A stretch of 64,000 nucleotides of DNA from a virus (IMGVR_UViG_3300022594_000001), one strand, 5' to 3'. Shown: positions 17,683 to 49,667, counted from the stretch's first letter. A program made the numbers and translations. The notes: generated by a model not told the origin, from the letters alone.

Positions 17683-17711
17683 TTGACAGGTCCAATTAAA
17701 TAGTGTACTAT
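17683..17711 (+). promoter_or_regulatory. sigma70-type promoter for the dnaJ-def-clpA operon, with nested TAAATA and a 10-bp inverted repeat
   Basis: TTGACA-17bp-TACTAT; TAAATA 17697-17702; ACAGGTCCAA (17686-95) / TTGGACCTGT (17722-31). Confidence 0.65.
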
Positions 17712-17735
17712 ACATTATTATTTGGACCTGTTCTT

Positions 17736-22367: not shown

Positions 22368-23522
22368 GTGTTAATAAGGGAACTATTCCTTACTGAGAGC
22401 GCAACTAAGCAGCCTGCTAAAAAGCTAGGGCGTACATTCAACCACCTAGAGGATCTTGTATTCTTCCACGGAAGTCAAGGTACACTAGAAGCATTACAAC
22501 ATTTAAAAGAATTTGCTACTCCAGAAGGTTCTACTTCTATTCGCATGAAATGGGATGGCAGTCCTCAAGTATACTGGGGCCGTGAACGTGCTAATGGTCC
22601 GTTGATATTCACAAGTCATAACGGTTGGCTGAGAGGAGTGAAAACTTCTAGTGCTAAACAGTTATACGAATTCATTGTTAATCAAAGCGGAAATACTAAG
22701 ACTGTCGAGGAACTAGAATCACGAAAAGCATTTGCTAAAGAGTTCGCTAGTTTATATCCAGTGTTTGATGCAGCTACGCCTAAAGACTTTGTAGGCTTTG
22801 TCTACGGAGACATTCTGTTTGCACAACCACAAAGCATTAACGAATCTGGAAACTATTCGTTTAGTCCTAATCCAAATACACAAACAACTTATCACGTTAA
22901 GCCTACAAGCAAGCTAGGACAGCGTATAAGCGCAGCAACGTCTATGGTAGTGGGTCATGCCTACTTTCCGCAGTTTGGCATGTTAGACGAAGCGCAAGAG
23001 CCCATTAAAGACTTCAGTAAGTTCAACAGAACAAGTAAACTAATTGTACAAGAACCAATTTACAATCAAGGTAGTATTAAAGTTAGCACACCTGAGTTGT
23101 TAGAAACTGAGCAATATGTTAAAACAAGAGCTAACAAGATTGATAAGTTTCTAGAAAGTACTTCTGGGCTGAGCGATCTTAAAGATATTATCTACAAGTT
23201 TGTTAATCAAACTGCAAAAGCAAAACAACTAGAATCAATTAGTACTCATAAGTTTTTTAATTGGTTGGCATCTAGTAAAGTTAGCCCAACTAAACAACAA
23301 AAAATTCATGCACTAAATGAACAGCATAATGCGTTAGACGATATTTTTACATTAGTCAAACGTATTCAAAATACGAAAGATAATATCATTGAGCAAATTG
23401 AAGAGCAACATTCTGCCGATATATGGGACACGCACGGTGAGGGTCGTGTACGCTATGCAGATAGCAATAAACAATTTGGACACATTAAATTAGTACCTAG
23501 AAAGCGTTGGACTCCTAAATGA
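22368..23522 (+). CDS. conserved T4-like phage protein with ligase-like KWDG motif (DUF6267-like)
   Basis: NHLED, RMKWDGSP, VYGDILF, late GEG; adjacent to the cytidylyltransferase-like gene. Confidence 0.55.
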   Translation: MLIRELFLTESATKQPAKKLGRTFNHLEDLVFFHGSQGTLEALQHLKEFATPEGSTSIRMKWDGSPQVYWGRERANGPLIFTSHNGWLRGVKTSSAKQLYEFIVNQSGNTKTVEELESRKAFAKEFASLYPVFDAATPKDFVGFVYGDILFAQPQSINESGNYSFSPNPNTQTTYHVKPTSKLGQRISAATSMVVGHAYFPQFGMLDEAQEPIKDFSKFNRTSKLIVQEPIYNQGSIKVSTPELLETEQYVKTRANKIDKFLESTSGLSDLKDIIYKFVNQTAKAKQLESISTHKFFNWLASSKVSPTKQQKIHALNEQHNALDDIFTLVKRIQNTKDNIIEQIEEQHSADIWDTHGEGRVRYADSNKQFGHIKLVPRKRWTPK

Positions 23523-24088
23523 AAATAAGCGATTTACTTAAAGAAACTACTGTAGGTATTTGCTTTGGCAGATTTAATCCTCCACATAGAGGACACGCTG
23601 CTGCTTGGAAAAACGCAAGCGAGTGTGATCATTGGGTTGTTGGTACTAACGAAAATACCCGAGATAGAAAAAATCCGTTACCATATGATGTAAAAGTAAA
23701 ATGCATGGAAACTGTATATCCTAAAATTGAAGGGCACATAGTTCCAGAGCAGAGCGTGTTTACTCTGGCAACTACTGTTTATAAAACATATGGCGAAAAT
23801 GTAGATTTAAAAGTATACACAGATGAAGATTGGCTTACAGAAAGTTTAATCAAGTATAACGGCAAAGAGTCCAAACACGGATACTATAAATTTAATAGTA
23901 TTTCACAAGCGCCTACTCCTAGACTAAGCAGTGCTACAAGTTTACGTACAGCAGTATTAGAAGACAATCGACAACAGTTTAGTGTTGCTGCTGGTATCTC
24001 CGACGATACCCCTATTAAAATAGAAGGTAAAACCGTCAAATTCTTCGATTTAGTTGCTAATTATTTGAAAGCATATCCCGTTAAGTAA
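23519..24088 (+). CDS. cytidylyltransferase-like (HxGH) nucleotidyltransferase
   Basis: FGRFNPPHRGH, NPL, RLSSATSLR. Confidence 0.8.
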   Translation: MKISDLLKETTVGICFGRFNPPHRGHAAAWKNASECDHWVVGTNENTRDRKNPLPYDVKVKCMETVYPKIEGHIVPEQSVFTLATTVYKTYGENVDLKVYTDEDWLTESLIKYNGKESKHGYYKFNSISQAPTPRLSSATSLRTAVLEDNRQQFSVAAGISDDTPIKIEGKTVKFFDLVANYLKAYPVK

Positions 24089-30003: not shown

Positions 30004-32670
30004 ATGTCTTATGTAGACGCATACTTTGATCGCGACAACGACATCATTAAAGTTGTTGAACGCAGTAAAAAAGGTGAACGAGAATTTAAAGATATTCCCG
30101 TTAAACATACCTTTTATTACAAAGACTCAAGAGGAAAACATTTATCAATCTATGGTGATCCCCTTTCACGAGTCATTTGTAAAAATACAAAAGATTTTAG
30201 AAAAGAGTTAGCAATTAACTCAGGCAAACAAATCTTTGAGGGAGATATCAACCCAATCTTTGTTTGTTTATCAGAACACTATATTAATATCGATGCTCCA
30301 AAACTAAACGTAGCGTTTTTTGATATTGAGGTGGACTTTGATCCAGAACGTGGCTATGCAAGTCCAGATGATGCATTTATGCCTATTACTGCGATCGCTG
30401 TTCACCTACAATGGTTAGACACTATGATTTGTTTAGCAATTCCTCCAAAGACATTAACTATGGAAGAAGCTAAGAAGCAAGTCGAAGAATTCCCTAATAC
30501 ATATTTGTTTGATAACGAAGCAGATATGCTAGATATGTTCTTAGATCTAATTCAAGACGCAGATGTGTTAAGTGGATGGAACTCAGAAGGCTTTGATATT
30601 CCATATACCGTTAACCGTGTTACTAAAACATTAAGCAAAGAAGATACAAGACGTTTTTGTTTGTTTAATCAGTTTCCACGTAGACGTGAATACGAAAAGT
30701 TCGGGCGTGATGCAGTAACATTTGATTTAGTCGGTCGTGTACACTTAGATAGTTTAGAATTATATCGCAAATATACGTATGAAGAACGTCATAGCTATCG
30801 ACTAGATGCTATTGCAGAGTATGAACTAGGCGAACGTAAAACACAGTACGAAGGTACATTGGATCAACTATACAACAATGACTTTAAAACATTCATTGAA
30901 TATAACAGACAAGACTGTGCGCTTCTTGATCGTTTAGATAAGAAGCTTAAATTCTTAGACTTAGCTAACACACTAGCACACGAAAACACTGTATTACTAC
31001 AAACTACAATGGGTGCTGTGGCTGTTACTGAACAAGCTATTATTAACGAAGCACATCGTAGAGGTTTCCAAGTACCTAATCGTCCTAAAATGGACGAACG
31101 TGAAAATAACCAAGCTGCCGGTGCGTATGTTGCATATCCTAAAGAGGGTTTGCAAGATTGGGTTGGATCATTGGATATTAACTCACTATATCCTAGTGCA
31201 ATTAGAGCACTTAATATGGGTCCCGAAACCATTGTTGGACAATTGCGTCAAACTAAAACAGATGCATATATCGAAAACCAAATGGCAAAAGGCAAATCAT
31301 TTGCTGCTGCATGGGAAGGTAAGTTTGGTACAGATGAGTATGAAGCTGTAATGGCTCAGGAAATTGGTACTGATATTACTATTGACTGGGAAAATGGTGA
31401 AAGCGATGTAGTTAGTGCTGCTGAAGTATATAGATTAATCTTCGAAAGTAATCAACCATGGATGATTAGTGCTAACGGTACTATCTTTACATGGGAAAAA
31501 GAAGGTATTATCCCAGGTCTACTAAAACGTTGGTATGCAGAACGTAAAGAGATGCAAGCCAAACTAAAGGAGGCTATTAATGCTAGTAACAAAATTGAAG
31601 AAGAATATTGGGACAAGAGACAGTTGGTTAAAAAGATTAACCTTAATTCGCTCTATGGTGCCATTCTTAATCCTGGCTGTCGCTTTTTCGATAAACGTAT
31701 CGGCCAATCTACTACCCTTACTGGACGTCAGATTGCAAAGCACATGGCTGGAAAAGTCAATGAAATCATTGCAGGAGAATATAACCACGTCGGTAAGGCA
31801 ATTATCTATGGAGACACCGACTCATGTTATTTCTCTGCTTATAAAACGCTAAAGAAAGAAATCGATGCTGGGCATATTCCATGGACTAAAGAAAGTGTAG
31901 TGCAGTTATATGATCAAATCGGTGAAGAGGTTAATGCCACATTCCCACAATTCATGCTCGATTATTTCCATTGTCCAAAGCGTATGGGTGAAGTTATTAA
32001 AGCAGGGCGAGAAGTTGTTGGATCTAAAGCATTGTTTATTACTAAAAAGCGTTATGCCGTACTTGTTTATGACAAAGAAGGTAAGCGTAAAGATAAAGAT
32101 GGTAAACCCGGCGACATCAAAGCTATGGGGTTGGACTTAAAACGCTCAGATACTCCTGAATTTATTCAAGACTTCCTAAGCGATGTATTAGAAATGGTAC
32201 TAACTGGTGCTACTGAAAAAGAAGTATTAGACTTTATTACTGAATTTAGAATTAAATTTAAGGCTCGCCCTGGTTGGGAAAAGGGTTCACCAAAACGTGC
32301 CAATAACATTACTATGTATCAAGGTAAAGAAAAAGATAATGGCAAGACTAACATGCCAGGTCATGTACGTGCAAGTATTAATTGGAACACATTAAAGCGC
32401 ATGTTTGATGACAAATACTCAATGAATATTACCGACGGTGCTAAAGTTATTGTATGTAAACTCAAAGCCAACCCATTAGAGTACGCAAGTGTCGCATATC
32501 CAGTCGACGAATTGAGGTTACCCCAGTGGTTTAAAGATTTACCTTTTAATCATGCAGAAATGGAAGCTACTATTATCGATAAGAAGCTAGAAAACCTTAT
32601 TGGTGTATTGAAGTGGCGTATTGCTGACACTGAAGAAAAGAATACATTTAACAGTTTATTCGAGTTCTAA
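30004..32670 (+). CDS. polB: family B DNA polymerase (T4 gp43-like)
   Basis: Exo FDIE, DINSLYPS, KINLNSLYG, YGDTDS. Confidence 0.95.
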   Translation: MSYVDAYFDRDNDIIKVVERSKKGEREFKDIPVKHTFYYKDSRGKHLSIYGDPLSRVICKNTKDFRKELAINSGKQIFEGDINPIFVCLSEHYINIDAPKLNVAFFDIEVDFDPERGYASPDDAFMPITAIAVHLQWLDTMICLAIPPKTLTMEEAKKQVEEFPNTYLFDNEADMLDMFLDLIQDADVLSGWNSEGFDIPYTVNRVTKTLSKEDTRRFCLFNQFPRRREYEKFGRDAVTFDLVGRVHLDSLELYRKYTYEERHSYRLDAIAEYELGERKTQYEGTLDQLYNNDFKTFIEYNRQDCALLDRLDKKLKFLDLANTLAHENTVLLQTTMGAVAVTEQAIINEAHRRGFQVPNRPKMDERENNQAAGAYVAYPKEGLQDWVGSLDINSLYPSAIRALNMGPETIVGQLRQTKTDAYIENQMAKGKSFAAAWEGKFGTDEYEAVMAQEIGTDITIDWENGESDVVSAAEVYRLIFESNQPWMISANGTIFTWEKEGIIPGLLKRWYAERKEMQAKLKEAINASNKIEEEYWDKRQLVKKINLNSLYGAILNPGCRFFDKRIGQSTTLTGRQIAKHMAGKVNEIIAGEYNHVGKAIIYGDTDSCYFSAYKTLKKEIDAGHIPWTKESVVQLYDQIGEEVNATFPQFMLDYFHCPKRMGEVIKAGREVVGSKALFITKKRYAVLVYDKEGKRKDKDGKPGDIKAMGLDLKRSDTPEFIQDFLSDVLEMVLTGATEKEVLDFITEFRIKFKARPGWEKGSPKRANNITMYQGKEKDNGKTNMPGHVRASINWNTLKRMFDDKYSMNITDGAKVIVCKLKANPLEYASVAYPVDELRLPQWFKDLPFNHAEMEATIIDKKLENLIGVLKWRIADTEEKNTFNSLFEF

Positions 32671-32671
32671 T

Positions 32672-33454
32672 ATGAAAATAATTATAGTAGGGTACGGATT
32701 TGTTGGTAAAGCAGTATTCAACGCCCTTAAAACAAAGTACAATGTTGTTATTGTTGATCCGCAGTATACAACAAATGAAATTAAACATCATCCAGATGCT
32801 GATGGTATTATCGTCTGTGTCCCTACACCTAGTTTAGACAACGGTGGATGTGATAGTAGTGCTGTTGCAAATGTGTTAGATCAAGTATTGAATGACAATA
32901 CTCCTATTCTAATTAAAAGCACAGTAACCCCAGTAGTTACTGAAGCGTTAAACGAGATATATTCAAATTTAACCATTACATACAGTCCAGAATTTTTACG
33001 TGCTAAGACTGCCAACCAAGACTTCCTTGATCAGACACACGTAGTTTTTGGCGGTGTAGATCCAGATGGCTTTTGGCAAGATGTGTTTACACCAGTATTA
33101 ACTAACTGCAAACTATACTTTCACTGTAGTCCAACCGAAGCAGCATTGATAAAGTATTCACGAAACGCCTTTTTGGCAACTAAAGTGTCATTCTTTAATC
33201 AATTGTTTGACTTATGCAATGCGTCAGGTGCAGACTTTGATGTAGTTAGACAGTTAGTAGCACAAGATACTCGCATTGGTGCTGGACATAGCCTAGTACC
33301 AGGGCTAGATGGAGAAAGGGGATTCGGTGGTGCGTGTTTCCCTAAGGATACAGCAGCACTTTTACACTATGCAAATAGCAAAGGCATTAATTTAAGCGTT
33401 ATAGATTCGGCTGTTAATTACAATAAAACGGTAAGAAATTCTATTGACATTTAA
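32672..33454 (+). CDS. UDP-glucose/GDP-mannose dehydrogenase family, lacking the C-terminal domain (start reassigned to 32672)
   Basis: GYGFVG, CVPTP, KSTV, SPEFL, KYSRNAFLATKVSF, GFGGACFPKD; 260 aa. Confidence 0.85.
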   Translation: MKIIIVGYGFVGKAVFNALKTKYNVVIVDPQYTTNEIKHHPDADGIIVCVPTPSLDNGGCDSSAVANVLDQVLNDNTPILIKSTVTPVVTEALNEIYSNLTITYSPEFLRAKTANQDFLDQTHVVFGGVDPDGFWQDVFTPVLTNCKLYFHCSPTEAALIKYSRNAFLATKVSFFNQLFDLCNASGADFDVVRQLVAQDTRIGAGHSLVPGLDGERGFGGACFPKDTAALLHYANSKGINLSVIDSAVNYNKTVRNSIDI

Positions 33455-33472
33455 CTAAGATCTAAATAAAAT
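33444..33472 (+). promoter_or_regulatory. sigma70-type promoter with overlapping TAAATA
   Basis: TTGACA-17bp-TAAAAT; TAAATA 33463-33468. Confidence 0.65.
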
Positions 33473-33491
33473 CAACTATACGGAGAAAATC

Positions 33492-34223
33492 ATGAAAGAC
33501 ATTTTACAAGACATCGTAACACATACACATTCACTAGGAATTATTCCTTTGGTGAAGATTACAAGCACAACAGAAAACACAGACATTGAAGCAATGGCCG
33601 AAGATCGTTCTGTTATTGTTAACGCAACAACTAAAACACCAATTAGTAACTTTGAAGGTGTATTTGGTATGCCTAACTTAAACAAATTAGCTATCCACCT
33701 TGCTTGCCCAGAATACAAAGAAAAGGCAAAAATTACTGTGTCAACTGGACAGCGTAACGGAGAAGAAGTTCCAACAGGACTACACTTCGAAAACGAAACA
33801 GGCGACTTTCAAAACGACTATCGTTTTATGAATACAGAAGTTGTCAATGAAAAATTAAAGACTGTTAAATTCAAAGGTGCTACATGGAACATTGAATTTG
33901 AACCAAGCGCAGCAGCTATTCAACGTTTAAAGTTTCAAGCAAACGCAAATAGTGAAGAAACAGTATTCCAAGTTAGTACAGATAACGATAACTTAATTTT
34001 TAACTTTGGTGATGCAAGTACACACGCAGGTAGCTTTATTTTCGAAGCAAATGTTTCAGGTAAATTAAAACAAACTTGGGCATGGCCAGTTACACAAGTT
34101 ATGAGCATTTTATCATTAACTGGCGATAAGACTGTTCGTATTGCAGATGTAGGCGTAATGCAAATTACAGTTGACAGCGGAATGGCTGAATACAACTACT
34201 TTTTACCAGCACAAACAAAGTAA
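33492..34223 (+). CDS. DNA sliding clamp (gp45-like)
   Basis: 243 aa alternating beta/alpha pattern, FGMPNLNKL, position next to the polymerase; clamp loader present in the window. Confidence 0.6.
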   Translation: MKDILQDIVTHTHSLGIIPLVKITSTTENTDIEAMAEDRSVIVNATTKTPISNFEGVFGMPNLNKLAIHLACPEYKEKAKITVSTGQRNGEEVPTGLHFENETGDFQNDYRFMNTEVVNEKLKTVKFKGATWNIEFEPSAAAIQRLKFQANANSEETVFQVSTDNDNLIFNFGDASTHAGSFIFEANVSGKLKQTWAWPVTQVMSILSLTGDKTVRIADVGVMQITVDSGMAEYNYFLPAQTK

Positions 34224-34426
34224 TGGAAACTCACAAAAGAACAGTTGTAAGAATGATCACCTATCGCCTAACAGCGTGGGTGTTCACTATCCTATGGACT
34301 TATTTGTTTACAGGTGACTTAGGAAGTGCTACTGGATTTGCTACAGTACTACATATTCTTTTGAGTATTGACTACTACATACACGAAAGAATCTGGCTAA
34401 AGATTAAATGGGGCAAAATTGAATAA
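34223..34426 (+). CDS. small membrane protein, DUF2061-like
   Basis: ETHKRTVVRMITYR...YYIHERIWLKIKWG. Confidence 0.7.
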   Translation: METHKRTVVRMITYRLTAWVFTILWTYLFTGDLGSATGFATVLHILLSIDYYIHERIWLKIKWGKIE

Positions 34427-36203
34427 GAATTTAACAGCAACACAAAACGACTACGCAGTATTTTTGCCCGCAACATCTGGATTTTATGCTACCTTTATTG
34501 GTAGACAGCACTATGGTAACTATGTAGATCCTGCACGTATACCAGCGCCATGGGCAAGTGGTATGGACGGGCTTAATTATCTAGAACCAGATAAGGGCGA
34601 GTTTTACTATAGATGGTGTTTGTATTCAGCAGGACATGCTAATTTAGATCTCACTAAACCGGATCAATGCGAAGATATGTTCCGCAAACGAGACCGTTCA
34701 ACATCTTGGGTGTTAGGCGACTCGGGCGGATTCCAGATCGGTAAAGGTGTATGGGAAGGTGAATGGAGAGATCCAACTGGTCCAGAAGTACAGGCTAAAA
34801 TGGCAGAATGTATTGCCAAAGGCATAGAGCTTGTACCCGTTATTGACGCAACCGGTAACCACGCTCTTGATAAGAAAGGCAATCCTAAGTACACTAAAGT
34901 CGATCACGTTAAGCAATATCAAGCAAAACTTGATGCGGCACATAAGAAGCGTACACAGGTGTTAACCTGGATGGACACACTTATGGACTATGGTATGGTC
35001 CTTGATATTCCAGCGTGGGTTGAACGTAGTCCAGCAGGACGTGCAGCAACTGGCATTACTAGCTATGACGAAGCTGTAGACGCAACTAGATACAATAACT
35101 CATACTGGATACAACACCGAACAGGTGCTTGTAAGTTTTTAAACGTTTTACAAGGCGAGAATCACGCACAAGCAGAAGACTGGTATCAAAAGATGAAAGA
35201 CTTTTGCGATCCTAACATCTATGGAGATAAAGCCTTTAACGGCTGGGCCATGGGTGGACAGAATATGTGCGATGTACACTTAGTACTAAAAAGATTAGTT
35301 GCATTACGATTTGACGGACTACTTGAAAAGGGTCAACATGATTGGATGCACTTCTTGGGCACCTCTAAATTAGAGTGGGCTGTTTTATTAACTGATATTC
35401 AACGAGCTGTAAGGAAATACCACAATGAAAACTTTACCATATCTTTTGACTGCGCCTCACCGTTTTTGGCAACAGCAAACGGACAAATCTACATCCAAAC
35501 AGAACTCACCGACAGACAAAAGTGGGTCTACAGAATGGTGCCGTCTGCTGATGACAAAAAGTACGCTCAAGACACAAGACTCTTCAAAGACGCAGTAATT
35601 CAAGATAAAATTTTTAGTAACTTTGATCCAAGTCCGTTAATTGATCAAGTTCGGATTAATGAAATTTGTATTTACGGTGCCGGCACACCTAAACCAGGTG
35701 TTACAAATCCAGACCCAACAAATTTAAATGATTGGTTAATTCCTCCAGACTTAAACAAGTTAGGTAAAGTTAGCAATCGCACAAGTTGGGATTCATTTAG
35801 CTATGCTATACAAATGGGTCATAATGTATGGAGTCATATCAATGCTGTGCAAACAGCTAACCAAGCATACGACAGCAACATTATGCCAGCAATGATGGAT
35901 ACAGTATACGCACATAGAAAGAAAGATTTCTTTTACGACTTGCGTTATTTTAAAGATATGGTTGAAGCTATCTTTGCAGCAACTACTAGAGACGAAGCAA
36001 ACAGACTAGTCGATCTTTATAAAAATTATTTTGATACTATTATTGGTACTAGAGGCAATACTGGTAACAAAATGACTAATGCAAGTAGTCAGTTTAGTGT
36101 ATTATTTGACATCGACGAGGACCCTGCTTCAGACGAACATGGTGATGAATTTACTGACGAAGAAATTCATAAACTTGACGACTTAGAGGATAGTGTAAAA
36201 TGA
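34419..36203 (+). CDS. dpdA: DNA 7-deazaguanine transglycosylase (DpdA/TGT family)
   Basis: GDSGGFQIG, MVLDIP, WAMGG, HFLGTS, SFDCASP TGT-barrel motifs; folE and queE nearby. Confidence 0.8.
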   Translation: MNKNLTATQNDYAVFLPATSGFYATFIGRQHYGNYVDPARIPAPWASGMDGLNYLEPDKGEFYYRWCLYSAGHANLDLTKPDQCEDMFRKRDRSTSWVLGDSGGFQIGKGVWEGEWRDPTGPEVQAKMAECIAKGIELVPVIDATGNHALDKKGNPKYTKVDHVKQYQAKLDAAHKKRTQVLTWMDTLMDYGMVLDIPAWVERSPAGRAATGITSYDEAVDATRYNNSYWIQHRTGACKFLNVLQGENHAQAEDWYQKMKDFCDPNIYGDKAFNGWAMGGQNMCDVHLVLKRLVALRFDGLLEKGQHDWMHFLGTSKLEWAVLLTDIQRAVRKYHNENFTISFDCASPFLATANGQIYIQTELTDRQKWVYRMVPSADDKKYAQDTRLFKDAVIQDKIFSNFDPSPLIDQVRINEICIYGAGTPKPGVTNPDPTNLNDWLIPPDLNKLGKVSNRTSWDSFSYAIQMGHNVWSHINAVQTANQAYDSNIMPAMMDTVYAHRKKDFFYDLRYFKDMVEAIFAATTRDEANRLVDLYKNYFDTIIGTRGNTGNKMTNASSQFSVLFDIDEDPASDEHGDEFTDEEIHKLDDLEDSVK

Positions 36204-37420
36204 AAAGACGCATCGGAGTCATCGGTGTAGGCAGTGCAGGTATTGTTACACTATGCAAACTGCTAGCATCATTAAGTAATGAATGGGATGTTGTTTCAAT
36301 ATATAATCCAAATATTCCTATTTTAGGAATAGGTGAAAGTACTAATCCTAGTTTTATTCGACTATTAGAACTAGGAACTAGATTTTCTCTCTTAGCAGAT
36401 ACTGATAAACTTGATAGCACTTTAAAATTTGGTACACAGTTTATTAATTGGAGAGATGAGCCGTGGCTTAATCCGTTATTAAGCGGTGGAGTTGCTGTTC
36501 ATTTTAATAACTTTAAATTAAAAGAATTTGCTTTTTCCAGATTTCCAACATTGTGGCCAGAAAAATTTAAAGTTATAGAAGGAAATGTTGATAAAGTTAC
36601 TAACACTAACGATAACGTTACCTTAGAAATCAATGGCAAGGAAGAAGTATTTGATTGGGTTATTGACTGCGGTGGATTTCCTAGCGACGAAGATGAGTAC
36701 ATTAAAAGCACATGTACTATTATGAATCGCTGTTTAGTCTACAGCTTTTTGGAATTTGACCCAATACAATACACTGAGCACATTGCAACACCTAACGGTT
36801 GGATGTTTGGCATTCCACTACAATCAAGAAAAACTTACGGATACTTGTTTAACGATGTAATTACGCCTGTTGAAGAAGCTCAGAAAGATATGGCTAGCAT
36901 ATTAAAAATAGGTGTTGATCAATTAACTACCTCTAACGAGTATCGAGAATATGCATTTAACTCATACTATACATCAAAATTTGTTAACAAACGAGTAATG
37001 AAGAATGGTAATAGAGCATTGTTTTTTGAACCTATTAGTGCAACATCAATTAATCAATACATTGCCACTTGTGATTTAATAATTCAAGTGCTGCTAAATG
37101 GCATGAATGAACCAGAAGCAAATGCGCAGTTTATTCACGAATCACAAATTACTGAAGATATTCTTAATTTTTACTATCACGGTGGTACTACATTTGATAC
37201 ACCATTTTGGCGAGCTGCAAAAGAAAACTCTATCAAACAATTAGACAATAATTTTAGATTTAATTACGTGCTCGATCTTAATCAAAGAGCAATGTCATAC
37301 GGATTGCCATACAACGGACAGGCACATTTATTTTCAAACTATTCACTAGTTGTTATGGATGAGGCATTTGGATATAATTATTTCAAAGGTGCTCCTCGTC
37401 CGTTTAGCCATCCTACTTGA
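36200..37420 (+). CDS. flavin-dependent halogenase (tryptophan halogenase family)
   Basis: GVGSAG, GIGEST, TLKFGTQFINW (catalytic Lys position), DCGGF, GWMFGIP (WxWxIP variant), FFEPISATSI; ATGA overlap with dpdA. Confidence 0.8.
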   Translation: MKRRIGVIGVGSAGIVTLCKLLASLSNEWDVVSIYNPNIPILGIGESTNPSFIRLLELGTRFSLLADTDKLDSTLKFGTQFINWRDEPWLNPLLSGGVAVHFNNFKLKEFAFSRFPTLWPEKFKVIEGNVDKVTNTNDNVTLEINGKEEVFDWVIDCGGFPSDEDEYIKSTCTIMNRCLVYSFLEFDPIQYTEHIATPNGWMFGIPLQSRKTYGYLFNDVITPVEEAQKDMASILKIGVDQLTTSNEYREYAFNSYYTSKFVNKRVMKNGNRALFFEPISATSINQYIATCDLIIQVLLNGMNEPEANAQFIHESQITEDILNFYYHGGTTFDTPFWRAAKENSIKQLDNNFRFNYVLDLNQRAMSYGLPYNGQAHLFSNYSLVVMDEAFGYNYFKGAPRPFSHPT

Positions 37421-37445
37421 TTTTACATTACATTTATCGTATAAT
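37417..37445 (+). promoter_or_regulatory. sigma70-type promoter, predicted leaderless
   Basis: TTGATT-17bp-TATAAT, 6 nt before the ATG at 37452. Confidence 0.65.
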
Positions 37446-37451
37446 ACACAC

Positions 37452-37712
37452 ATGACAATGCCAGACGAAAGATTCCGAGCAGTTCTGTACGCAGAAGAAT
37501 TTCTACGTGCAATAGCTGATCCAAACATTACTAAGCGTATTCCAAAAGAAATACGCCAACGTGCTCGCGGAATCCTTCGTCACTATCCTAGTACGTGGGA
37601 TATGCAACAGGCTGCAGAAGCAAGCCCGCATGTGTTTGCCGAACGGATGGAAGATGTAACTAGACTTTTTAAACAATACGAACAATCAAAGGCAAATAAG
37701 AATGAAGCGTGA
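37452..37712 (+). CDS. hypothetical protein (start reassigned to 37452)
   Basis: MTMPDERFRAV...LRHYP; directly after a promoter. Confidence 0.65.
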   Translation: MTMPDERFRAVLYAEEFLRAIADPNITKRIPKEIRQRARGILRHYPSTWDMQQAAEASPHVFAERMEDVTRLFKQYEQSKANKNEA

Positions 37713-38217
37713 ACACAAAGGTGCATTTGATCCAGAAGGTGTGCGATTCTTTACAGGTAAAGAAGTAGAGCATACTCCTGCATATGGAATGGATACATTA
37801 TTTGTAATCGGTATCCAACCTACTACAGAAATAACCCCCAGACTACAAAATATAGGCACACATATCTTCTTTGGTGCTGATCATAGCTTTGATCCGAAAA
37901 CACGAGAAGATTGGAAAGAGTGGGAGGCTATGATCGAACACTATTTAAAAATGGGTATACTGTGTAGCCTTGACATTCCATTAAGTGCTGTTGAAGAATT
38001 CAACGAAGGCCCGTTAAATGAATACGATAATTTCATTCCACAAATTAGAGTTCCAATTCCTTATATTAAATTATGGAATTATAATACAATGCTTAAAATA
38101 GATGATAAAGATTTTAAAGCAACTAATCCCGGTGTGTGGACACATAGTCTACATGATTTAAAAGATCGTTCTAAGTTTACTCCTTGGGACAAATATAATA
38201 GCGACAAAACAGTATGA
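37702..38217 (+). CDS. hypothetical protein coupled to the QueD-like gene
   Basis: 171 aa; ATGA overlap with 38214. Confidence 0.7.
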   Translation: MKREHKGAFDPEGVRFFTGKEVEHTPAYGMDTLFVIGIQPTTEITPRLQNIGTHIFFGADHSFDPKTREDWKEWEAMIEHYLKMGILCSLDIPLSAVEEFNEGPLNEYDNFIPQIRVPIPYIKLWNYNTMLKIDDKDFKATNPGVWTHSLHDLKDRSKFTPWDKYNSDKTV

Positions 38218-38630
38218 TTATCAAGCAAGACATTCGCCCTTTAAAAATGATCTGGGTTAATTTCCAGAAAGAAGGCATTCACAAATATCCAGCGGCACTT
38301 ACAGATCCCGCATTAGCTACAGGAGATGAATACGATGTATCGTTTTTGGGTTATCCTCACCGTCATATTTTCCATTTCAGGGTGTGGATCAGTGTGCAGC
38401 ACAACGACAGGGACATCGAGTTCATCCAATTCAAACGTTGGCTCACTTCGTTGTATCAATCAAGTGCCGACAATAACAGTAGTCAAGATTCCGTTTTAAA
38501 TCTTGACTATAAGAGTTGTGAAATGATATCAGACGATTTGTATGATGTCATTAGCAAGAAGTATCCAAATCGCGAAGTTTGGATTGAGGTTTCCGAAGAT
38601 TCGGAAAATGGTTCATTTATCAAATATTAA
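38214..38630 (+). CDS. dpdL: QueD-like T-fold enzyme with LxxxHRHxF motif (probable DpdL, CDG decarboxylase)
   Basis: FLGYPHRHIF instead of QueD CxxxHGH; SCE and EVSEDSENG; DpdL signature recalled from the literature, not searched. Confidence 0.6.
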   Translation: MIIKQDIRPLKMIWVNFQKEGIHKYPAALTDPALATGDEYDVSFLGYPHRHIFHFRVWISVQHNDRDIEFIQFKRWLTSLYQSSADNNSSQDSVLNLDYKSCEMISDDLYDVISKKYPNREVWIEVSEDSENGSFIKY

Positions 38631-38644
38631 AATAAGAGGCTACT

Positions 38645-38911
38645 ATGGCTAAAAATTATAACGACATCGTTTATTCTGAAACTAAAAACGGTAAGGATTC
38701 CGCTGACATCTTTGATGTACTAGAAGGATATCTAGATTACTGTCGTTTTGAACTCCTTGAGTTCGACCCATCACATTACAGTGTAAGGGGTAATCATCAT
38801 CCACAATATCGTGGTTACATAAACAGTAAGAGACCACGCAAGCCATATTTAGGAAACAAGCCTAGATATAACAACAATAACAGACGCCATGAGCAGAATT
38901 TTTCTAATTGA
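38645..38911 (+). CDS. hypothetical protein
   Basis: 88-aa ORF with GAGG RBS. Confidence 0.55.
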   Translation: MAKNYNDIVYSETKNGKDSADIFDVLEGYLDYCRFELLEFDPSHYSVRGNHHPQYRGYINSKRPRKPYLGNKPRYNNNNRRHEQNFSN

Positions 38912-39959
38912 TTTAGAAGCCGTTGAAACAAGGTACACGGGTCAGTGGAAGACCCATGTACCTGAACTCTTACGAAAGGCAGGACACAATGTTCAAATTA
39001 TCTCTGGGCCTACGGATATTCCTTCAGCCACTACTCCTGGTGCTTTTCTTAATTTTGGTGGCACCAATATATACAAGTCTAGCCAAGTTGAGCAAATGGG
39101 CCGTTTATTTTGTAGCGGATCCGTTTATCCCGGCGACCACTTTATTTTTACTGACGCTTGGCATCCGGGCATTATAAACCTAAAGTACATGAGTGAGCTA
39201 CTAGGTATTCCAGTAGTTACACATGGCTTATGGCATGCTGGTAGTTATGATCCTCAAGACTTCCTTGGACGCTTAGTCGGAGATAAGCCTTGGGTCAGAC
39301 ATGCAGAACAAAGTTTCTATCATGCGTTCGATCATAACTACTTTGCTACACAATTCCACATTGAAATGTTTGGTAAGAATCTGTTAGGCAAAGCAGGATA
39401 TGTTCCAGAAGCTAATGTAACAGGTAAAGTTGTTCGCACAGGTTGGCCTATGGAATATATGCAAGATACCTTGCTAGAATATAAGGGTATGGAAAAACGT
39501 AACCTTATTTTATTCCCACATCGAATTGCTCCAGAAAAACAAGTTGATATTTTTAGAGACTTGAAAGAACGCTTACCACAATACGAGTTTGTAGTATGCC
39601 AGGATCAACAGCTAACAAAAAATGAATATCATAATTTGTTAGGCGAATCAAAATTAGTGTTTAGTGCAAACTTACAAGAAACATTAGGTATTAGTTGGTA
39701 CGAAGGAGCAGTAGTAGATGCTATTCCTATGGTACCGGATCGCCTAAGCTATAGCGAAATGGCAATGGATGAATTCAAGTATCCAAGCAACTGGACCGAA
39801 AGCTATAACCATTATGTAGCAAATAGGAACGAAGTCTGCGATCGTATCGTAGAGTACATGGATAATTACACTAAGTATATTCCACTTGTACACAAACAAA
39901 TGGAGGTGCTACGTGACAACTTCTTCAGCGCAAGAAACATTCTCAATAACATTAACTGA
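38889..39959 (+). CDS. GT-B fold glycosyltransferase (GT4-like)
   Basis: FPHRIAPEKQ, ETLGISWYE (E-x7-E), VPDRLSYSE. Confidence 0.75.
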   Translation: MSRIFLIDLEAVETRYTGQWKTHVPELLRKAGHNVQIISGPTDIPSATTPGAFLNFGGTNIYKSSQVEQMGRLFCSGSVYPGDHFIFTDAWHPGIINLKYMSELLGIPVVTHGLWHAGSYDPQDFLGRLVGDKPWVRHAEQSFYHAFDHNYFATQFHIEMFGKNLLGKAGYVPEANVTGKVVRTGWPMEYMQDTLLEYKGMEKRNLILFPHRIAPEKQVDIFRDLKERLPQYEFVVCQDQQLTKNEYHNLLGESKLVFSANLQETLGISWYEGAVVDAIPMVPDRLSYSEMAMDEFKYPSNWTESYNHYVANRNEVCDRIVEYMDNYTKYIPLVHKQMEVLRDNFFSARNILNNIN

Positions 39960-40694: not shown

Positions 40695-40911
40695 ATCAGT
40701 TAGAGATAGCTACAAAGAAATGGTTATCAAAGAATCCGAAGGCTTTCGCCTAACACTGAAGAAGCACGAAGTATTAAGTCCTAAAGGCTTGTTTAGTATC
40801 GATATGCTTCAAGAAAGTTTGAAAGACGGTGAGGTTGTTAGCTCGCAAGAATATAACTTCTTTATGACTAAAGAAGAATGTCAAGCACTAGCATATGGCC
40901 TAACTGCATGA
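40681..40911 (+). CDS. hypothetical protein (start reassigned to 40681)
   Basis: GGAG RBS upstream of MELHES. Confidence 0.55.
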   Translation: MELHESVRDSYKEMVIKESEGFRLTLKKHEVLSPKGLFSIDMLQESLKDGEVVSSQEYNFFMTKEECQALAYGLTA

Positions 40912-41435
40912 AGAAAGTCTATTATTCTTGGCAACAAGTACAAGGTGCCTGTTTAGATATTGCTAGACAATTACGCAAAGATAAATGGGCACCTGACTAT
41001 ATCGTTGGCATTACCAGAGGAGGAGCAGTTCCTGCCATACTGTTAAGTCAATATTTAGATGTACCAATGCGCCCACTACAAGTAAGTTTACGAGATGGTG
41101 GAGAATGTGTTAGCGATTGCGGAATGGCTGAAGATGCGTTTGGACATCTCATTTACGATCCAATGTGCTCCGGCGACGGCAAGAAAAAGATCCTAGTCGT
41201 CGATGATATTAACGATCAAGGATCAACTATTGCTTGGATTAAACAAGACTGGCAAGCAAGTTGTCATCCAAACGACGAACGTTGGCTTAACGAAATATGG
41301 GGACGAAATGTCCGCTTTGCTACACTTACCGACAATATTGCTAGCAAAGAAACTGTTGACTACTCAGTGTGGGAAGTTAACAAGGCAGAAGAAGATTGTT
41401 GGTTAGTTTATCCTTGGGAGGATTTTTGGAAATGA
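40908..41435 (+). CDS. purine phosphoribosyltransferase (Gpt/Xpt-like, type I PRTase)
   Basis: GITRGG, ILVVDDINDQGST PRPP-binding loop, WLVYPWE. Confidence 0.85.
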   Translation: MKKVYYSWQQVQGACLDIARQLRKDKWAPDYIVGITRGGAVPAILLSQYLDVPMRPLQVSLRDGGECVSDCGMAEDAFGHLIYDPMCSGDGKKKILVVDDINDQGSTIAWIKQDWQASCHPNDERWLNEIWGRNVRFATLTDNIASKETVDYSVWEVNKAEEDCWLVYPWEDFWK

Positions 41436-42258: not shown

Positions 42259-42954
42259 ATGTCAGAAAAAAACTTATCACAAGTAATACGCGAACAAATG
42301 AAACGACAAGGCAAACGTTTCTGGGCTGGCGACAATATTAGCGATTATGTCGATGAAGAACAAAAAGAAGTATTAATCGAAGAAGCTACTGTAGCTTTTG
42401 AAAAGGTACTAGATACACTTTTGATTGATAGAGAAACAGATCCAAATTCGCACGGTACTGCAAAGCGCCTAGCTAAAATGTATTTTAATGAAATTATGTC
42501 AGGGCGTTATGATCCTGCACCAGACGCAACAGCGTTTCCAAATGATAGTGAGGATAGATATGAAGGCATGTTGGTTGTTCGTAGTGAGTTGCGTAGTATG
42601 TGTAGTCATCATCACCAACCCGTTACTGGCGTTGCTTATATTGGCATTATTGCCGCTCAAAAACTTATTGGCTTATCTAAGTACACCCGAATCGCACAGT
42701 GGTGTGCTAGAAGAGGTACACTCCAGGAGGAACTTTGTAATGATATTGCTAGGGAAATCGCAAAAGCAACAGAAGCTAGAGACATAGGTGTTTATGTACA
42801 AGCTGTACACGGGTGCTGTGAGAATCGCGGAATTATGGCTAAAAGTAGTTTAACACAAACTACTGTACTTAAAGGTGCGTTTAAAGAAGATGCAGGTACA
42901 AAGAAAGAATTCTTTGACAACATTAAAATGCAACAGGAGTACGCCTCAAAATGA
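42259..42954 (+). CDS. folE: GTP cyclohydrolase I
   Basis: SMCSHH, GLSKYTRI, QEEL, HGCCENRG. Confidence 0.92.
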   Translation: MSEKNLSQVIREQMKRQGKRFWAGDNISDYVDEEQKEVLIEEATVAFEKVLDTLLIDRETDPNSHGTAKRLAKMYFNEIMSGRYDPAPDATAFPNDSEDRYEGMLVVRSELRSMCSHHHQPVTGVAYIGIIAAQKLIGLSKYTRIAQWCARRGTLQEELCNDIAREIAKATEARDIGVYVQAVHGCCENRGIMAKSSLTQTTVLKGAFKEDAGTKKEFFDNIKMQQEYASK

Positions 42955-43172: not shown

Positions 43173-43563
43173 TCCACAAGTTCCAGCCGAAGGTATCCTA
43201 ATTAGAAAGGATTATGGCGATGCCAAAAGTTACACTGTACCGTGTGAATGCTGTGGCTCCAATTGCGAGCACAATGTCTGGGTCGAAGCAGACGAAACAG
43301 GAGTCACAGTCACAACATACACCCAACAAAAAACAAAATGGTGGGAACTTAACAGATGGCAAGTCATTTGGCGATTGCTTACAACAGGCTATGTCGAATA
43401 TGAAGCGTCCATTATAATGTCCAAACAACAAGCTCTTAACTACTCAGCCGTGTTACAATCATCTGTTAACGATATAGAGCAGTTTGAAAAAGATCGTAAA
43501 TGGAAACAAGATTTAGTTAATAAAATTGCTACTAGATTAGCCAATGAAGGTGATTGTGAATGA
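43165..43563 (+). CDS. hypothetical protein with CECC..C.H motif (start reassigned to 43165)
   Basis: Possible Zn ribbon VPCECCGSNCEH. Confidence 0.55.
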   Translation: MTNPQVPAEGILIRKDYGDAKSYTVPCECCGSNCEHNVWVEADETGVTVTTYTQQKTKWWELNRWQVIWRLLTTGYVEYEASIIMSKQQALNYSAVLQSSVNDIEQFEKDRKWKQDLVNKIATRLANEGDCE

Positions 43564-44411
43564 GTAAAATTAAAATTGCAGAACTATTTTATAGTGTACA
43601 AGGTGAAGGACGTTACATGGGTGTACCGTCTGTTTTCTTACGTACATTTGGATGTAACTTTAAATGTGCCGGCTTCGGTATGCCTCGAGGCGAACTAAGC
43701 ATAGAAGCAGAGGACATTGCACAAGTTGCACACTTATACAACAAATATGAAGAACTTCCTTTGGTTACTACGGGGTGTGACAGTTATGCTAGTTGGCATC
43801 CTAGTTTTAAAGAACTTAGTCCAATGCTCACTTCAGACGCAATCGCCGATAGAATCTCGGAAATTATTCCGTTCGGCGAATGGAAAGATGAACACTTGGT
43901 AATCACAGGCGGTGAGCCATTGCTAGGTTGGCAACGTGCTTATCCAGACTTGCTAGATCATCCTAAGATGAAAGGCTTGAAAGAAATTACCTTTGAAACA
44001 AACGGTACTCAAAAACTTACACAAGACTTTAAAAATTATTTAGGTGTATGGAAAGGTCTTCCAAGACAAAAACGTGAAATTACATTTAGTGTAAGTGCCA
44101 AGTTGCCGTGCAGTGGCGAAAAGTGGGAAGAAGCTATTCAACCAGACATTGTATGCGAATACGAAGAAGTTGGAACTGCATACTTAAAATTTGTTATTTC
44201 TACAGAACAAGATTTTGAGGATGCTCAACGTGCAGTTGCTGAGTATCGTAAAGCAGGATTTACAGGACACGTTTATCTAATGCCGGTTGGTGGTGTTGAA
44301 AGTGTTTATGCATTAAACAATAAAGCAGTAGCTATTATGGCAATGAAAGCAGGTTTACGGTATAGTGATAGATTGCAAGTGCCATTATTTAAAAATGAAT
44401 GGGGAACCTAA
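43560..44411 (+). CDS. queE: 7-carboxy-7-deazaguanine synthase (radical SAM)
   Basis: ELFYSVQGEG, FLRTFGC, ITGGEP, FETNGT, VSAKL, RLQV; split Cys motif CX3CX36C. Confidence 0.85.
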   Translation: MSKIKIAELFYSVQGEGRYMGVPSVFLRTFGCNFKCAGFGMPRGELSIEAEDIAQVAHLYNKYEELPLVTTGCDSYASWHPSFKELSPMLTSDAIADRISEIIPFGEWKDEHLVITGGEPLLGWQRAYPDLLDHPKMKGLKEITFETNGTQKLTQDFKNYLGVWKGLPRQKREITFSVSAKLPCSGEKWEEAIQPDIVCEYEEVGTAYLKFVISTEQDFEDAQRAVAEYRKAGFTGHVYLMPVGGVESVYALNNKAVAIMAMKAGLRYSDRLQVPLFKNEWGT

Positions 44412-44605: not shown

Positions 44606-45053
44606 GAATTTTTTTAGAAAAATTACAGGACTAGATGCATTAGATAAAGCTAAAGAGCAAGCACTAGAAGAAGCCCGTGCCGCTGTTAAGTTAGCTGCAC
44701 ACGCACAAGCAGAATTAGAAGCTGCTAAGGCAGCAGAGGAGGCAGCAAAACTGGGCCCAAAAGAACGTGCAACTGCCCAAGGGATGCCTTATGTAGCTGT
44801 TTTAGATACGCACGTAAATAAAGACAACATTCGCAATGGATTCTTTGAGCTAGACTGGAATGATCAATTTATTGTAGAACTTAAAACTGCTGGATATGGA
44901 TTTGACGGTGATCCAGACGAAGAGATTGTGGATCGTTGGTTTAGAGATCTAGCGGCAAACATGCTAGCAGAAGCAGGCGAAGATCCATCTAGACATACTG
45001 CTGGATTTATTAACGTTAACAGAATTAATCCTAATCGTTCAGAGATTTCTTAA
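44598..45053 (+). CDS. hypothetical protein
   Basis: 151 aa, FFELDWN..F motif. Confidence 0.65.
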   Translation: MIKNFFRKITGLDALDKAKEQALEEARAAVKLAAHAQAELEAAKAAEEAAKLGPKERATAQGMPYVAVLDTHVNKDNIRNGFFELDWNDQFIVELKTAGYGFDGDPDEEIVDRWFRDLAANMLAEAGEDPSRHTAGFINVNRINPNRSEIS

Positions 45054-45634
45054 TGCACACTGTATTAGAAAATAACGAATACATCGACCAGTACAACTGG
45101 TCGTCTTTAATTACGCAAGAAGATAATATGCAATTAATGACTATTGCTAAAAGTATCATTGATGCAGGCGATTATTTTACTAATAGTCCTAAGTTTCAAA
45201 CTAGACAAAATTTATTTGCAAGACCAGAACCAGTCTTTTTAAAGATGCGTCAAAGTTTTATATACTCTTGTTTTATGTTTTTAGAAAAAGAAGTTCGTAT
45301 TAAAAACATTATGAGTTGGGTTTTTATGACTAACAACAAGACTACGGAAAATAGAGATGATTTTTGGCATAACCATCATATTAGCGATAATGACGGTACT
45401 ACGGATACACTTAGTGGAATTTGGTACGTGCATATTCCCAAAGTTCAAAATCAAGATATTACCGGAACCGAATATTCAATGGCAGGGCCTCCCAACTTTA
45501 ACGACACATTCTTTTTAAAACCAAAAGAGTTGACTTGGAACGTATATCCTAGTAAACTGTGGCATAGACCCGGAATCACAGATTCAGACGATTACCGGTT
45601 TGTTTTTGCAGCAGACATGGAATACTATAAATGA
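45053..45634 (+). CDS. 2OG-Fe(II) oxygenase-like protein
   Basis: WHNH...SGIWYVHIP...YPSKLWHRP...R jelly-roll facial-triad pattern. Confidence 0.6.
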   Translation: MHTVLENNEYIDQYNWSSLITQEDNMQLMTIAKSIIDAGDYFTNSPKFQTRQNLFARPEPVFLKMRQSFIYSCFMFLEKEVRIKNIMSWVFMTNNKTTENRDDFWHNHHISDNDGTTDTLSGIWYVHIPKVQNQDITGTEYSMAGPPNFNDTFFLKPKELTWNVYPSKLWHRPGITDSDDYRFVFAADMEYYK

Positions 45635-48500: not shown

Positions 48501-49592
48501 ATGGCAGAAATTAACAGCCGCACCGTTGGCCCTAAAGATGCAAAAAAGTCTTTGCGTAAAGCGTTTAAAAATCAGCGTCCTATCTTTATTTGGGGTCCTC
48601 CAGGTATTGGTAAGTCAGACATTATTAAGCAACTTGGCGGCGAGCTAGAAGCTCATGTAATCGACGTGCGCCTTTCACTGTGGGAACCTACTGACATTAA
48701 AGGTATTCCTTACTTTGACAGCAACGACGGTACTATGCGTTGGGCACCTCCAGGCGAATTGCCAAGCAAAGAGTTTGCTGCTAACCACAAACAAATCATC
48801 TTGTTCTTGGATGAAATGAACTCAGCTGCACCATCAGTACAAGCTGCTGCATATCAATTGGTGTTGAACCGCAAAGTTGGCACATATGAGTTGCCAGCAA
48901 ACGTTGTAATTGTTGCAGCTGGTAACCGTGAGTCTGACAAAGGTGTTACATACCGTATGCCTGCTCCGTTGGCTAACCGTTTCGTTCACTTGGAAATGGC
49001 TGTTGATTGGGACGACTGGTTTGACTGGGCTACTGACAACCGCACACACAAAGACGTTGTTGGTTTCTTGACTTTCTCTAAGAAAGACTTGTACGACTTT
49101 GATCCAAAGTCTAGCTCACGTGCATTTGCTACACCACGTAGCTGGTCATTTGTTAGCGAATTGTTGCATGATGACGATACCGATCACGACACTTTGATGA
49201 ATTTGGTTACTGGTTCAGTTGGTGAGGGCTTGGCTTCTAAGTTTATGGCACACCGTAAACATGCTAGCAAGTTGCCTAACCCACGTGACATCTTGTCAGG
49301 CAAAGTTAACAAGCTGGATACTAAAGAGATTTCAGCACAGTATTCACTAGTTGTTAGCTTGTGCTACGAGTTGAAAGACTCATGCGATAAGAAAGCTAAA
49401 GACTGGAACGATCAAGTTAACTGCTTCTTCGAGTTCATGATGAAGAACTTTGAAACAGAATTGGTTATCATGGGTACTAAGTTGGCATTGTCTAGCTACA
49501 AGTTGCCGCTGGATCCAGATGAAATCAAGTGCTTTGATGATTTCCATGCTAAGTTCGGTAAGTATATTTCGGCAGCTACCGATAAAAACTAA
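48501..49592 (+). CDS. MoxR-family AAA+ ATPase
   Basis: WGPPGIGKS, LFLDEMN, AAGNR, PLANRF, TPRSW. Confidence 0.85.
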   Translation: MAEINSRTVGPKDAKKSLRKAFKNQRPIFIWGPPGIGKSDIIKQLGGELEAHVIDVRLSLWEPTDIKGIPYFDSNDGTMRWAPPGELPSKEFAANHKQIILFLDEMNSAAPSVQAAAYQLVLNRKVGTYELPANVVIVAAGNRESDKGVTYRMPAPLANRFVHLEMAVDWDDWFDWATDNRTHKDVVGFLTFSKKDLYDFDPKSSSRAFATPRSWSFVSELLHDDDTDHDTLMNLVTGSVGEGLASKFMAHRKHASKLPNPRDILSGKVNKLDTKEISAQYSLVVSLCYELKDSCDKKAKDWNDQVNCFFEFMMKNFETELVIMGTKLALSSYKLPLDPDEIKCFDDFHAKFGKYISAATDKN

Positions 49593-49608
49593 TCCAAAAT
49601 CGAACCAT

Positions 49609-49637
49609 TTGACACCACCTTCGGGTGGTGTTATAAT
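49609..49637 (+). promoter_or_regulatory. consensus sigma70 promoter whose spacer is a C(UUCG)G hairpin
   Basis: TTGACA-17bp-TATAAT; ACACCACC-TTCG-GGTGGTGT at 49612-49631. Confidence 0.8.
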
Positions 49638-49667
49638 ATATACTATAGTAAAACTTTAGGAGCAGAC

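Follow-up and report, generated by a model that had tools for sequence, protein, structure and literature searches.

The glycosyltransferase and the genes around it

The DNA analysed here (the window, 64 kb in all) comes from the virus IMGVR_UViG_3300022594_000001 and holds phage genes in a + strand run. Our subject is the region 32672–39959, which contains the gene for a glycosyltransferase of the GT-B type (GT; 356 aa, 38889..39959) and, further upstream, that of a shortened homologue of UDP-sugar dehydrogenases (260 aa, 32672..33454), both on the + strand, as are all other window genes located below. The dehydrogenase gene follows that of a T4-like family B DNA polymerase (polB, 30004..32670; PF00136/PF03104; phrog_262, E 3.5e-198), and after it come, in order, a clamp-like protein of 243 aa, a DUF2061 protein, a 594-aa DpdA-like protein, a tryptophan-halogenase-like flavoenzyme, p171, DpdL, p88 and the GT. 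A reading made from the sequence alone had placed a GT4-like GT-B enzyme two genes after a DpdL-like gene, and this arrangement is confirmed, with DpdL at 38214–38630, the 88-aa open reading frame (ORF) p88 at 38645–38911 and the GT at 38889–39959. The same reading called the region an operon. The ORFs do overlap or abut, but promoter and terminator scans scored no better than shuffled sequences, and the label is deduced from the ORF ends only.

By itself, the GT sequence matches nothing in Pfam (even at E 10), NCBIfam, PADLOC or the sequences of the PDB. It belongs to a large family (more than 8000 matches in 90% clusters; 1129 clusters at 50% identity), which we represented by an alignment of 58 diverse members. 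PF00534 is matched by 44 of these (best E 1.3e-8) and PF13439 by six; among the 22 Pfam families matched in all, no family of T4-type glucosyltransferases appears at E ≤0.1, and the DUF3524 domain typical of GTDC1 is matched by none of the 58. The family profile also matches PDB 8xsg, a "putative glycosyltransferase", at E 1.6e-5. An AlphaFold2 (AF2) model of the GT (pLDDT 95.7, pTM 0.92) has a complete GT-B architecture, with two Rossmann-like domains and an inter-domain cleft. Its best structural matches are retaining enzymes of the GT4/GT5 families (Z 22–26 over about 300 residues; Z 24–26 over 300–317 residues for GT4 enzymes), including sucrose-phosphate synthase (Z 25.8, rmsd 3.4, 317 residues), BshA (Z 25.0), MshA, GlgM, glycogen synthase and PglA.

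The EX7E motif is found as E264-x7-E272, in which E272 is invariant and E264 conserved in at least 90% of the 58 sequences; the donor-binding residues R212 and K217 reach at least 90% as well, so that the donor site looks intact. The N-terminal acceptor domain contributes 18 of the 36 invariant or near-invariant columns, including W20, W91, W135, H116, D121, D124 and E140. Such conservation of the acceptor domain is unusual for GT4 enzymes and suggests a single conserved acceptor. Judged by the model and these motifs, the protein is a GT-B, GT4-like glycosyltransferase that looks functional.

Linkage to 7-deazaguanine genes in phages and bacteria

The GT gene closes a tight block, p171-DpdL-p88-GT, in which DpdL (38214..38630, 138 aa) is a paralogue of QueD. 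Its sequence LGYPHRHIF conforms to the LxxxHRHxF signature that separates DpdL from QueD (CxxxHGH) (Cui, Hutinet et al., NAR 2023, PMC10516641). DpdL has been proposed to decarboxylate 7-carboxy-7-deazaguanine (CDG), an activity that is only a proposal (PMC10516641). Homologues were found in phages Phosso, PA5oct, ACP17, BUDD and phiST; the window protein is 51% identical to that of ACP17 (E 5e-33) and 37% identical to that of phiST over half its length (E 6e-5). The block opens with p171 (37702..38217, 171 aa), which occurs in 56/56 close loci and overlaps DpdL by ATGA. Its AF2 model is fairly confident (pLDDT 86.5) and has no clear structural relative: the highest Z is 6.7, three QueE chains reach 5.5–6.0, and Foldseek gave no match below E 0.05; hints of a glycosyl hydrolase were at noise level only and were dismissed. 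The gene for p88 (38645..38911), present in 55/56 close loci, overlaps the GT start by 23 nt.

The candidate transglycosylase of the DpdA/tRNA-guanine transglycosylase (TGT) type is the 594-aa protein encoded at 34419..36203, assigned by family-profile homology and motifs. The profile of its family aligns with that of the ACP17/BUDD DpdA family, of which the BUDD member is annotated as a queuine tRNA-ribosyltransferase, with a probability of 96.5% and E 9e-10 (hhalign). The invariant stretches GDSGGFQIG and SFDCASP correspond to the DSGGFQ and FDC motifs of transglycosylases. The protein itself yields no Pfam match at E 10, PF01702 included, and no PDB match by sequence or by profile. It is 31% identical to PA5oct gp316, whose gene is directly upstream of the PA5oct GT. 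Downstream of the block are a GTP cyclohydrolase I gene (FolE, the first 7-deazaguanine step; 42259..42954; PF01227, E 5.6e-39) and a gene for a QueE-like radical SAM protein (43560..44411; weak PF04055, E 1.6e-5), which is 25–31% identical to the annotated QueE proteins of PA5oct, ACP17 and BUDD.

This gene company follows the GT family widely. From IMG/VR, 235 loci were retrieved with three alignments spanning different GT-family clades, and their ORFs were searched with iterated profiles. A DpdL-family gene is present in 164 of the 167 distinct viral loci with at least 1.5 kb on each side of the GT; it is always on the same strand, and in 147 loci it is no more than 1.5 kb away. Most viral loci also contain FolE and QueE-like genes, and where GT identity is at least 45% a DpdA-like gene is found in 88 of 89. 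The close GT clade occurs in T4-like phages with PolB, whereas the clade below 35% identity occurs in phages with PolA (40/66 loci). The linkage of GT and DpdL spans both phage types and is therefore not the inherited synteny of a single replication module. Cultured phages follow the same pattern: GT homologues adjoin DpdL, with FolE and QueE close by, in Phosso (50% GT identity), the PA5oct group (42%), ACP17 (36%) and Xanthomonas phage BUDD (27%). The three ACP17 genes run DpdA-like gene, GT, DpdL, and their ends overlap or abut.

Within the distant clade, 46 of the 48 loci have, abutting the GT, a gene of another family, alignment A9 (about 300–330 aa; for example L092:11044-11937 and L086:8664-9590), with the TGT-like motifs DSGAHS, VKVHGFAMT and SVDSTSW. 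Having no Pfam or PDB match, and only E 0.009–0.03 to DpdA profiles and to phiST gp042, this family was not assigned to DpdA; it may represent an additional DpdA subfamily. In one contig of a PolA-type phage, a single ORF (L092:6460-8250) encodes a phosphoribosyltransferase joined to GTP cyclohydrolase I, with an intervening intein that contains an HNH endonuclease; DpdL, a radical SAM protein of 450 aa and the GT follow shortly after it.

The linkage works in one direction only. Phages phiST, RHph_I1_18, Ahp1 and others have DpdL and no such GT, while the GT is almost never found without DpdL or DpdA. Since phiST makes its deazaguanine DNA with DpdL and no GT, the GT looks like a downstream decoration, and the pattern fits a step added to the end of a known pathway.

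A scan of bacteria and metagenome-assembled genomes (MAGs), taking one genome per species, gave 44 further GT loci. Several are giant-phage contigs binned into MAGs; many belong to isolates of Alphaproteobacteria (Pelagibacterium, Devosia, Methylobacterium, Magnetospirillum, Sulfitobacter and others). A DpdA-like gene shares the locus in 43 of the 44, usually next to the GT, the exception being a 4.6-kb contig, and DpdL is also adjacent in many; in some loci FolE and QueE are missing from the neighbourhood. On the chromosome of Pelagibacterium mangrovi (L263:5036-11812), an island consists of a serine recombinase, two unknown proteins of ~320 aa, a DpdA-like protein and the GT. It is flanked by host genes, namely a bile-acid symporter gene and an RTX/type I secretion system (T1SS) cluster, and the ORFs scanned include no phage structural genes, FolE, QueE or DpdL. 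With GT and DpdA-like genes so paired, the minimal conserved unit looks like a transglycosylase plus the GT. The co-occurrence with dpdA and dpdL that the sequence-only reading had named as its own check is thus near-universal, in unrelated phage types as in bacterial islands, and the GT does not behave as a gene independent of dpdA. Our literature search found no paper that pairs DpdL with a glycosyltransferase.

The mini dehydrogenase and other genes of the window

The dehydrogenase gene sits directly after the polymerase, as had been read from the sequence: its ATG at 32672 is one base past the polB stop at 32670, the catalytic GGACFPKD is intact and the C-terminal domain is missing. The protein comprises an NAD domain, with GYGFVG as the NAD-binding GxGxxG motif, and a central catalytic domain with FGGACFPKD. 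Pfam accordingly recognises only PF03721 (N-terminal, E 1.8e-12) and PF00984 (central, E 1.3e-24); the C-terminal UDP-sugar-binding domain PF03720 is absent from the protein, which ends after the central domain and covers positions 67–298 of the 413 in NCBIfam TIGR03026 (157.6 bits, below the 189.8 cut-off). The next gene begins at 33492, which leaves no room for a C-terminal domain. Because the 120 best homologues are all 254–276 aa long, with the same two Pfam domains, the gene is a conserved "mini" form and not a broken one. Across six aligned phage sequences of the UDP-glucose dehydrogenase (UGDH) family, five of them short (256–319 aa) and the sixth the full-length enzyme of phage SP-15, GxGxxG, K161, N165, K171, C222, K225 and D226 are invariant.

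Where present in the lineage, the dehydrogenase gene is always inside the module that runs from polB to QueE, where it may follow polB, precede FolE or follow the GT, its start in that case overlapping the GT stop. This last arrangement, a 4-nt overlap, was found in seven loci (L259, L006, L040, L052, L082, L083 and L220); six of the coupled genes encode mini forms (258–271 aa), and the seventh, L259:11074-12318, a full-length 414-aa enzyme with all three domains. These displaced, GT-coupled positions argue for a role in sugar oxidation shared with the GT. Mini forms also occur in cyanophages. In Campylobacter phage CP220 (L252:5931-7765), whose DNA is reported as fully substituted with 2'-deoxy-7-amido-7-deazaguanosine (dADG), the 256-aa mini dehydrogenase CPT_0019 is beside a QueE-like radical SAM gene and a gene for a protein with two transmembrane segments, with no GT of this family. 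In Microbacterium phage Honeyfin (L253:3264-4783), the gene of a 246-aa glycosyltransferase of a different type overlaps that of a 260-aa mini dehydrogenase; the pair adjoins a ParB-like nuclease-domain protein and an AAA ATPase, and may be another sugar module, directed at DNA or at the cell surface.

The DUF2061 small membrane protein (34223..34426; PF09834, E 1.3e-7) occurs in a subset of related loci. The flavoenzyme (36200..37420; PF04820, E 3.3e-30; phrog_2928), whose start overlaps the stop of the DpdA-like gene, is a rare accessory, being found in only two related loci; it could equally be a hydroxylase, with a weak NCBIfam match to a flavin monooxygenase. A phosphoribosyltransferase gene (40878..41435; PF00156, E 3e-12) is present in 44/56 close loci. 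A gene for a protein resembling 2-oxoglutarate (2OG)-Fe(II) oxygenases (45053..45634) has only a weak match (PF13759, E 6e-4, below cut-off); it is accessory in some relatives, and in locus L064 such a gene lies directly 3' of the GT.

Elsewhere the window contains, besides the polymerase, genes for a clamp loader, for lysis, for an RNase H/FEN and for chaperones (DnaJ, ClpB-like). The chaperones are encoded within 17703–21346 and 48501–50861, as is a MoxR-type AAA ATPase that is paired with a DUF2201 metallopeptidase/VWA protein. At 22368–24088, a gene for a DUF6267 protein precedes that of a 189-aa protein, which resembles cytidylyltransferases weakly (E 1e-4) and may make a nucleotide-activated precursor or serve NAD salvage. 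A 10-kb region gave no megablast match to phages, and the window has no close DNA match among GenBank phages. Its polymerase is 50% identical to that of Sinorhizobium phage Phosso (469 kb) and 46% to that of Atu_ph07, and proteins of the window are also encoded on contigs of up to 345 kb. The window derives from an uncultured jumbo phage, whose lineage is very abundant in the environment.

Proposed pathway, alternatives and known systems

Based on the above data, we consider the chances about even that the GT is an active, probably retaining GT4-like enzyme, dependent on a nucleoside diphosphate (NDP)-sugar, within a QueC-less 7-deazaguanine DNA-modification module to which the mini dehydrogenase is an optional addition. 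The folds, motifs and gene linkage described above were observed; each chemical step below, with its donor, its acceptor atom and its place in the order, is inferred. FolE, a QueD activity and the QueE-like enzyme would produce CDG, which the DpdL-type T-fold enzyme would convert, by the proposed activity, to 7-deazaguanine. The 594-aa DpdA/TGT-like enzyme would then exchange guanine in DNA for the deazaguanine base. The GT would add a sugar to the deazapurine, either once the base is in DNA, in the manner of T4 with 5-hydroxymethylcytosine (hmC), or earlier, while the base is still free. The resulting sugar-bearing purine in phage DNA would shield G-containing sites from host nucleases. Where present, the mini dehydrogenase probably oxidises C6 of the transferred hexose to a uronic acid; because the UDP-binding domain is missing, it may act on the sugar after transfer or together with a protein partner, and not as a free UDP-glucose dehydrogenase.

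The sequence-only reading had proposed a sugar hypermodification, possibly of a 7-deazaguanine derivative, with UDP-glucuronate supplied by the dehydrogenase. The sugar is favoured by a functional-looking GT-B enzyme in near-universal linkage with DpdL, DpdA-like, FolE and QueE-like genes. The supply of UDP-glucuronate is the weaker part, for an enzyme that has no UDP-binding domain, is optional and occurs without the GT, although its coupling by start and stop codons to the GT in seven loci speaks for it. A literature search for a link between deazaguanine DNA and uronic acid or glucuronate found no relevant paper. Two published results fit a sugar decoration. PA5oct DNA resists restriction enzymes with G in their sites, and the chemistry of its modification is unsolved; papers on MIJ3 and on jumbo phages gave no modification chemistry. 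In E. coli, dpdA and dpdL of ACP17 alone produced no 2'-deoxy-7-deazaguanosine (dDG), and the authors suggested a missing enzyme (PMC10516641); the ACP17 GT sits between these two genes.

Several observations weigh against this proposal. The window GT and its family are acidic (pI 5.9; family median 5.7), and the nearest structures act on small molecules, not DNA. The resemblance to the T4 alpha- and beta-glucosyltransferases (AGT and BGT), to which the sequence-only reading had looked, holds at the level of the GT-B fold class, but both are absent from the best 50 structural matches of the model, which are led by small-molecule GT4 enzymes; a cyanophage "DNA alpha-GT" ranks 22nd among the BFVD matches. 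The acidic pI and these structural neighbours leave room for a free base as the acceptor. Nor does 7-deazaguanine, the product expected of DpdL, offer a hydroxyl or side-chain amine to glycosylate. Its 2-amino group might instead be N-glycosylated, as by HuiG on a free deazapurine, or the base might first be hydroxylated by an accessory flavoenzyme or 2OG-oxygenase-like protein. To these points are added the lack of any QueD found in the window, the distant clade, in which DpdA profiles find no DpdA and the GT has the unassigned neighbour instead, and some bacterial islands that have the GT and DpdA without DpdL, FolE or QueE. The dehydrogenase, for its part, is absent from most GT loci and occurs without this GT in CP220, in Microbacterium phages and, alone, in L251.

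One alternative is a GT confined to free small molecules of the pathway, such as the deazapurine base or a pterin intermediate, so that the DNA ends up unglycosylated, for example with plain 7-deazaguanine, and the sugar serves as a temporary handle, helps to store or export the molecule, or controls the base pool. Besides the acidic protein, the small-molecule GT4 enzymes nearest in structure (BshA, MshA, LmbT and tetrahydrobiopterin glucosyltransferase) agree with this, as do HuiG, the sole known GT that acts on a 7-deazaguanine nucleus, which takes the free base, and a family-wide linkage that is tighter to the base-level DpdL than to any detectable DpdA. We nevertheless think it unlikely: bacterial islands pair the GT with a DNA transglycosylase alone, without genes for base synthesis, and phiST makes dDG DNA without such a GT, which is therefore not needed for base supply. 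Greater still is our doubt about a target outside DNA modification altogether (for example a glycan of the host envelope, a protein of the virion or of replication, or DpdA), with nothing but an early or replication expression block in common. Some members carry the Joint Genome Institute (JGI) auto-annotation "glycosyltransferase involved in cell wall biosynthesis", glycans and lipids are common GT4 substrates, and T4-like phages do inherit the gene order of the replication module as a block; yet the linkage survives both the change from PolB to PolA and the transfer into compact bacterial islands without phage genes, the constant neighbours are DpdL and DpdA-like genes and not replication genes, and the acceptor domain is unusually conserved, all of which makes such a target improbable.

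The place of the dehydrogenase is a separate matter. It might supply no sugar to the GT; as an NAD-dependent oxidoreductase of a kind general among phages, it might act on something else, for instance to oxidise a deazapurine side chain or to serve a host nucleotide-sugar function, and its place after polB would then be incidental. The gene is found in 25 of the 56 close GT loci and in none of the 48 distant ones, and is thus missing from 31/56 and 48/48; it lacks the UDP-binding domain, it stands beside a QueE-like gene in the GT-less CP220, and it recurs in cyanophages, in Microbacterium phages and by itself in L251. Set against this are its constant position within the polB-to-QueE module of the lineage, the overlap of its start with the GT stop in six loci, with the full-length three-domain UGDH in the same position in a seventh, and the renewed overlap with a glycosyltransferase of another type in Microbacterium phages. 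We regard this as a serious contender, if one that falls a little short of an even chance. With comparable reserve, we tentatively propose that the virion DNA of this lineage and of PA5oct, ACP17, Phosso and BUDD may contain glycosylated 7-deazaguanine, made by GT4-like and DpdA-subfamily partners and carrying a uronic acid where a mini dehydrogenase acting after transfer is present. Under this proposal the dehydrogenase would have lost the domain that binds UDP, because its substrate is the sugar already transferred.

To our knowledge, the sugar decorations of phage DNA are all on pyrimidines, namely hmC and derivatives of 5-hydroxymethyluracil (hmU). Eight 7-deazaguanine DNA bases are known, all small and sugar-free (PMC10516641). 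If our proposal is true, the glycosylated deazapurine would open a new class of DNA bases and be the first reported sugar-bearing purine in DNA. It could explain the failed dDG reconstitution with ACP17 genes and could identify what END and Dag-type defence nucleases see in PA5oct-like phages, and the transglycosylase and GT would form a new enzyme pair with which DNA could be labelled in a site-directed way. Since the large GT family abounds in giant phages of the environment, the modification would also be common ecologically. Of the cultured phages, four at least (PA5oct, ACP17, Phosso and BUDD) carry the GT. The mini dehydrogenase remains a puzzle in its own right, as a widespread two-domain relative of UGDH with an intact active site and no nucleotide handle.

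Among known systems, the closest in gene content is that of Cellulophaga phage phiST, whose FolE, QueD, QueE, DpdL and DpdA3 lead to dDG, as measured (PMC10516641). The window has in common with it a QueC-less set, FolE, a QueE-like protein, DpdL with LxxxHRHxF and a distant TGT-like transglycosylase. It differs in its 594-aa DpdA-like protein, in that no QueD was found and in the addition of the GT, p171, p88 and the mini dehydrogenase; phiST has no GT homologue. The T4 alpha- and beta-glucosyltransferases resemble the GT in fold class, in being phage enzymes among DNA-metabolism genes and in their presumed role, the decoration of an already modified base against host nucleases. They act on hmC, whereas the base in the window would be a purine. 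HuiG of the huimycin pathway, an enzyme of GT4 type, uses UDP-GlcNAc to N-glycosylate a 7-deazapurine as the free base (bioRxiv 10.64898/2026.04.15.718813). It resembles the window GT, compared by description only, in enzyme class and in its acceptor, the 7-deazaguanine nucleus, which is the one proposed for the GT, and its chemistry needs no hydroxyl side chain; unlike the GT, it is an actinomycete enzyme of secondary metabolism, from clusters without dpdA.

For the uronic acid there is a precedent in phage SP-15, which encodes a UGDH-family enzyme together with group 1 glycosyltransferases. The DNA of this Bacillus phage reportedly carries glucose and phosphoglucuronate on dihydroxypentyluracil. 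In contrast to the window, its modified base is a pyrimidine and its UGDH is a full-length 436-aa enzyme, encoded beside a UTP-glucose-1-phosphate uridylyltransferase, for which reason we rejected SP-15 as a precedent for a truncated UGDH. Lastly, the eukaryotic enzymes QTMAN (GTDC1), which is GT4-like, and QTGAL glycosylate queuosine in tRNA. Like the proposed reaction of the GT, theirs is the glycosylation of a 7-deazaguanine derivative within a nucleic acid, but their acceptor is the cyclopentenediol hydroxyl of queuosine, in tRNA.

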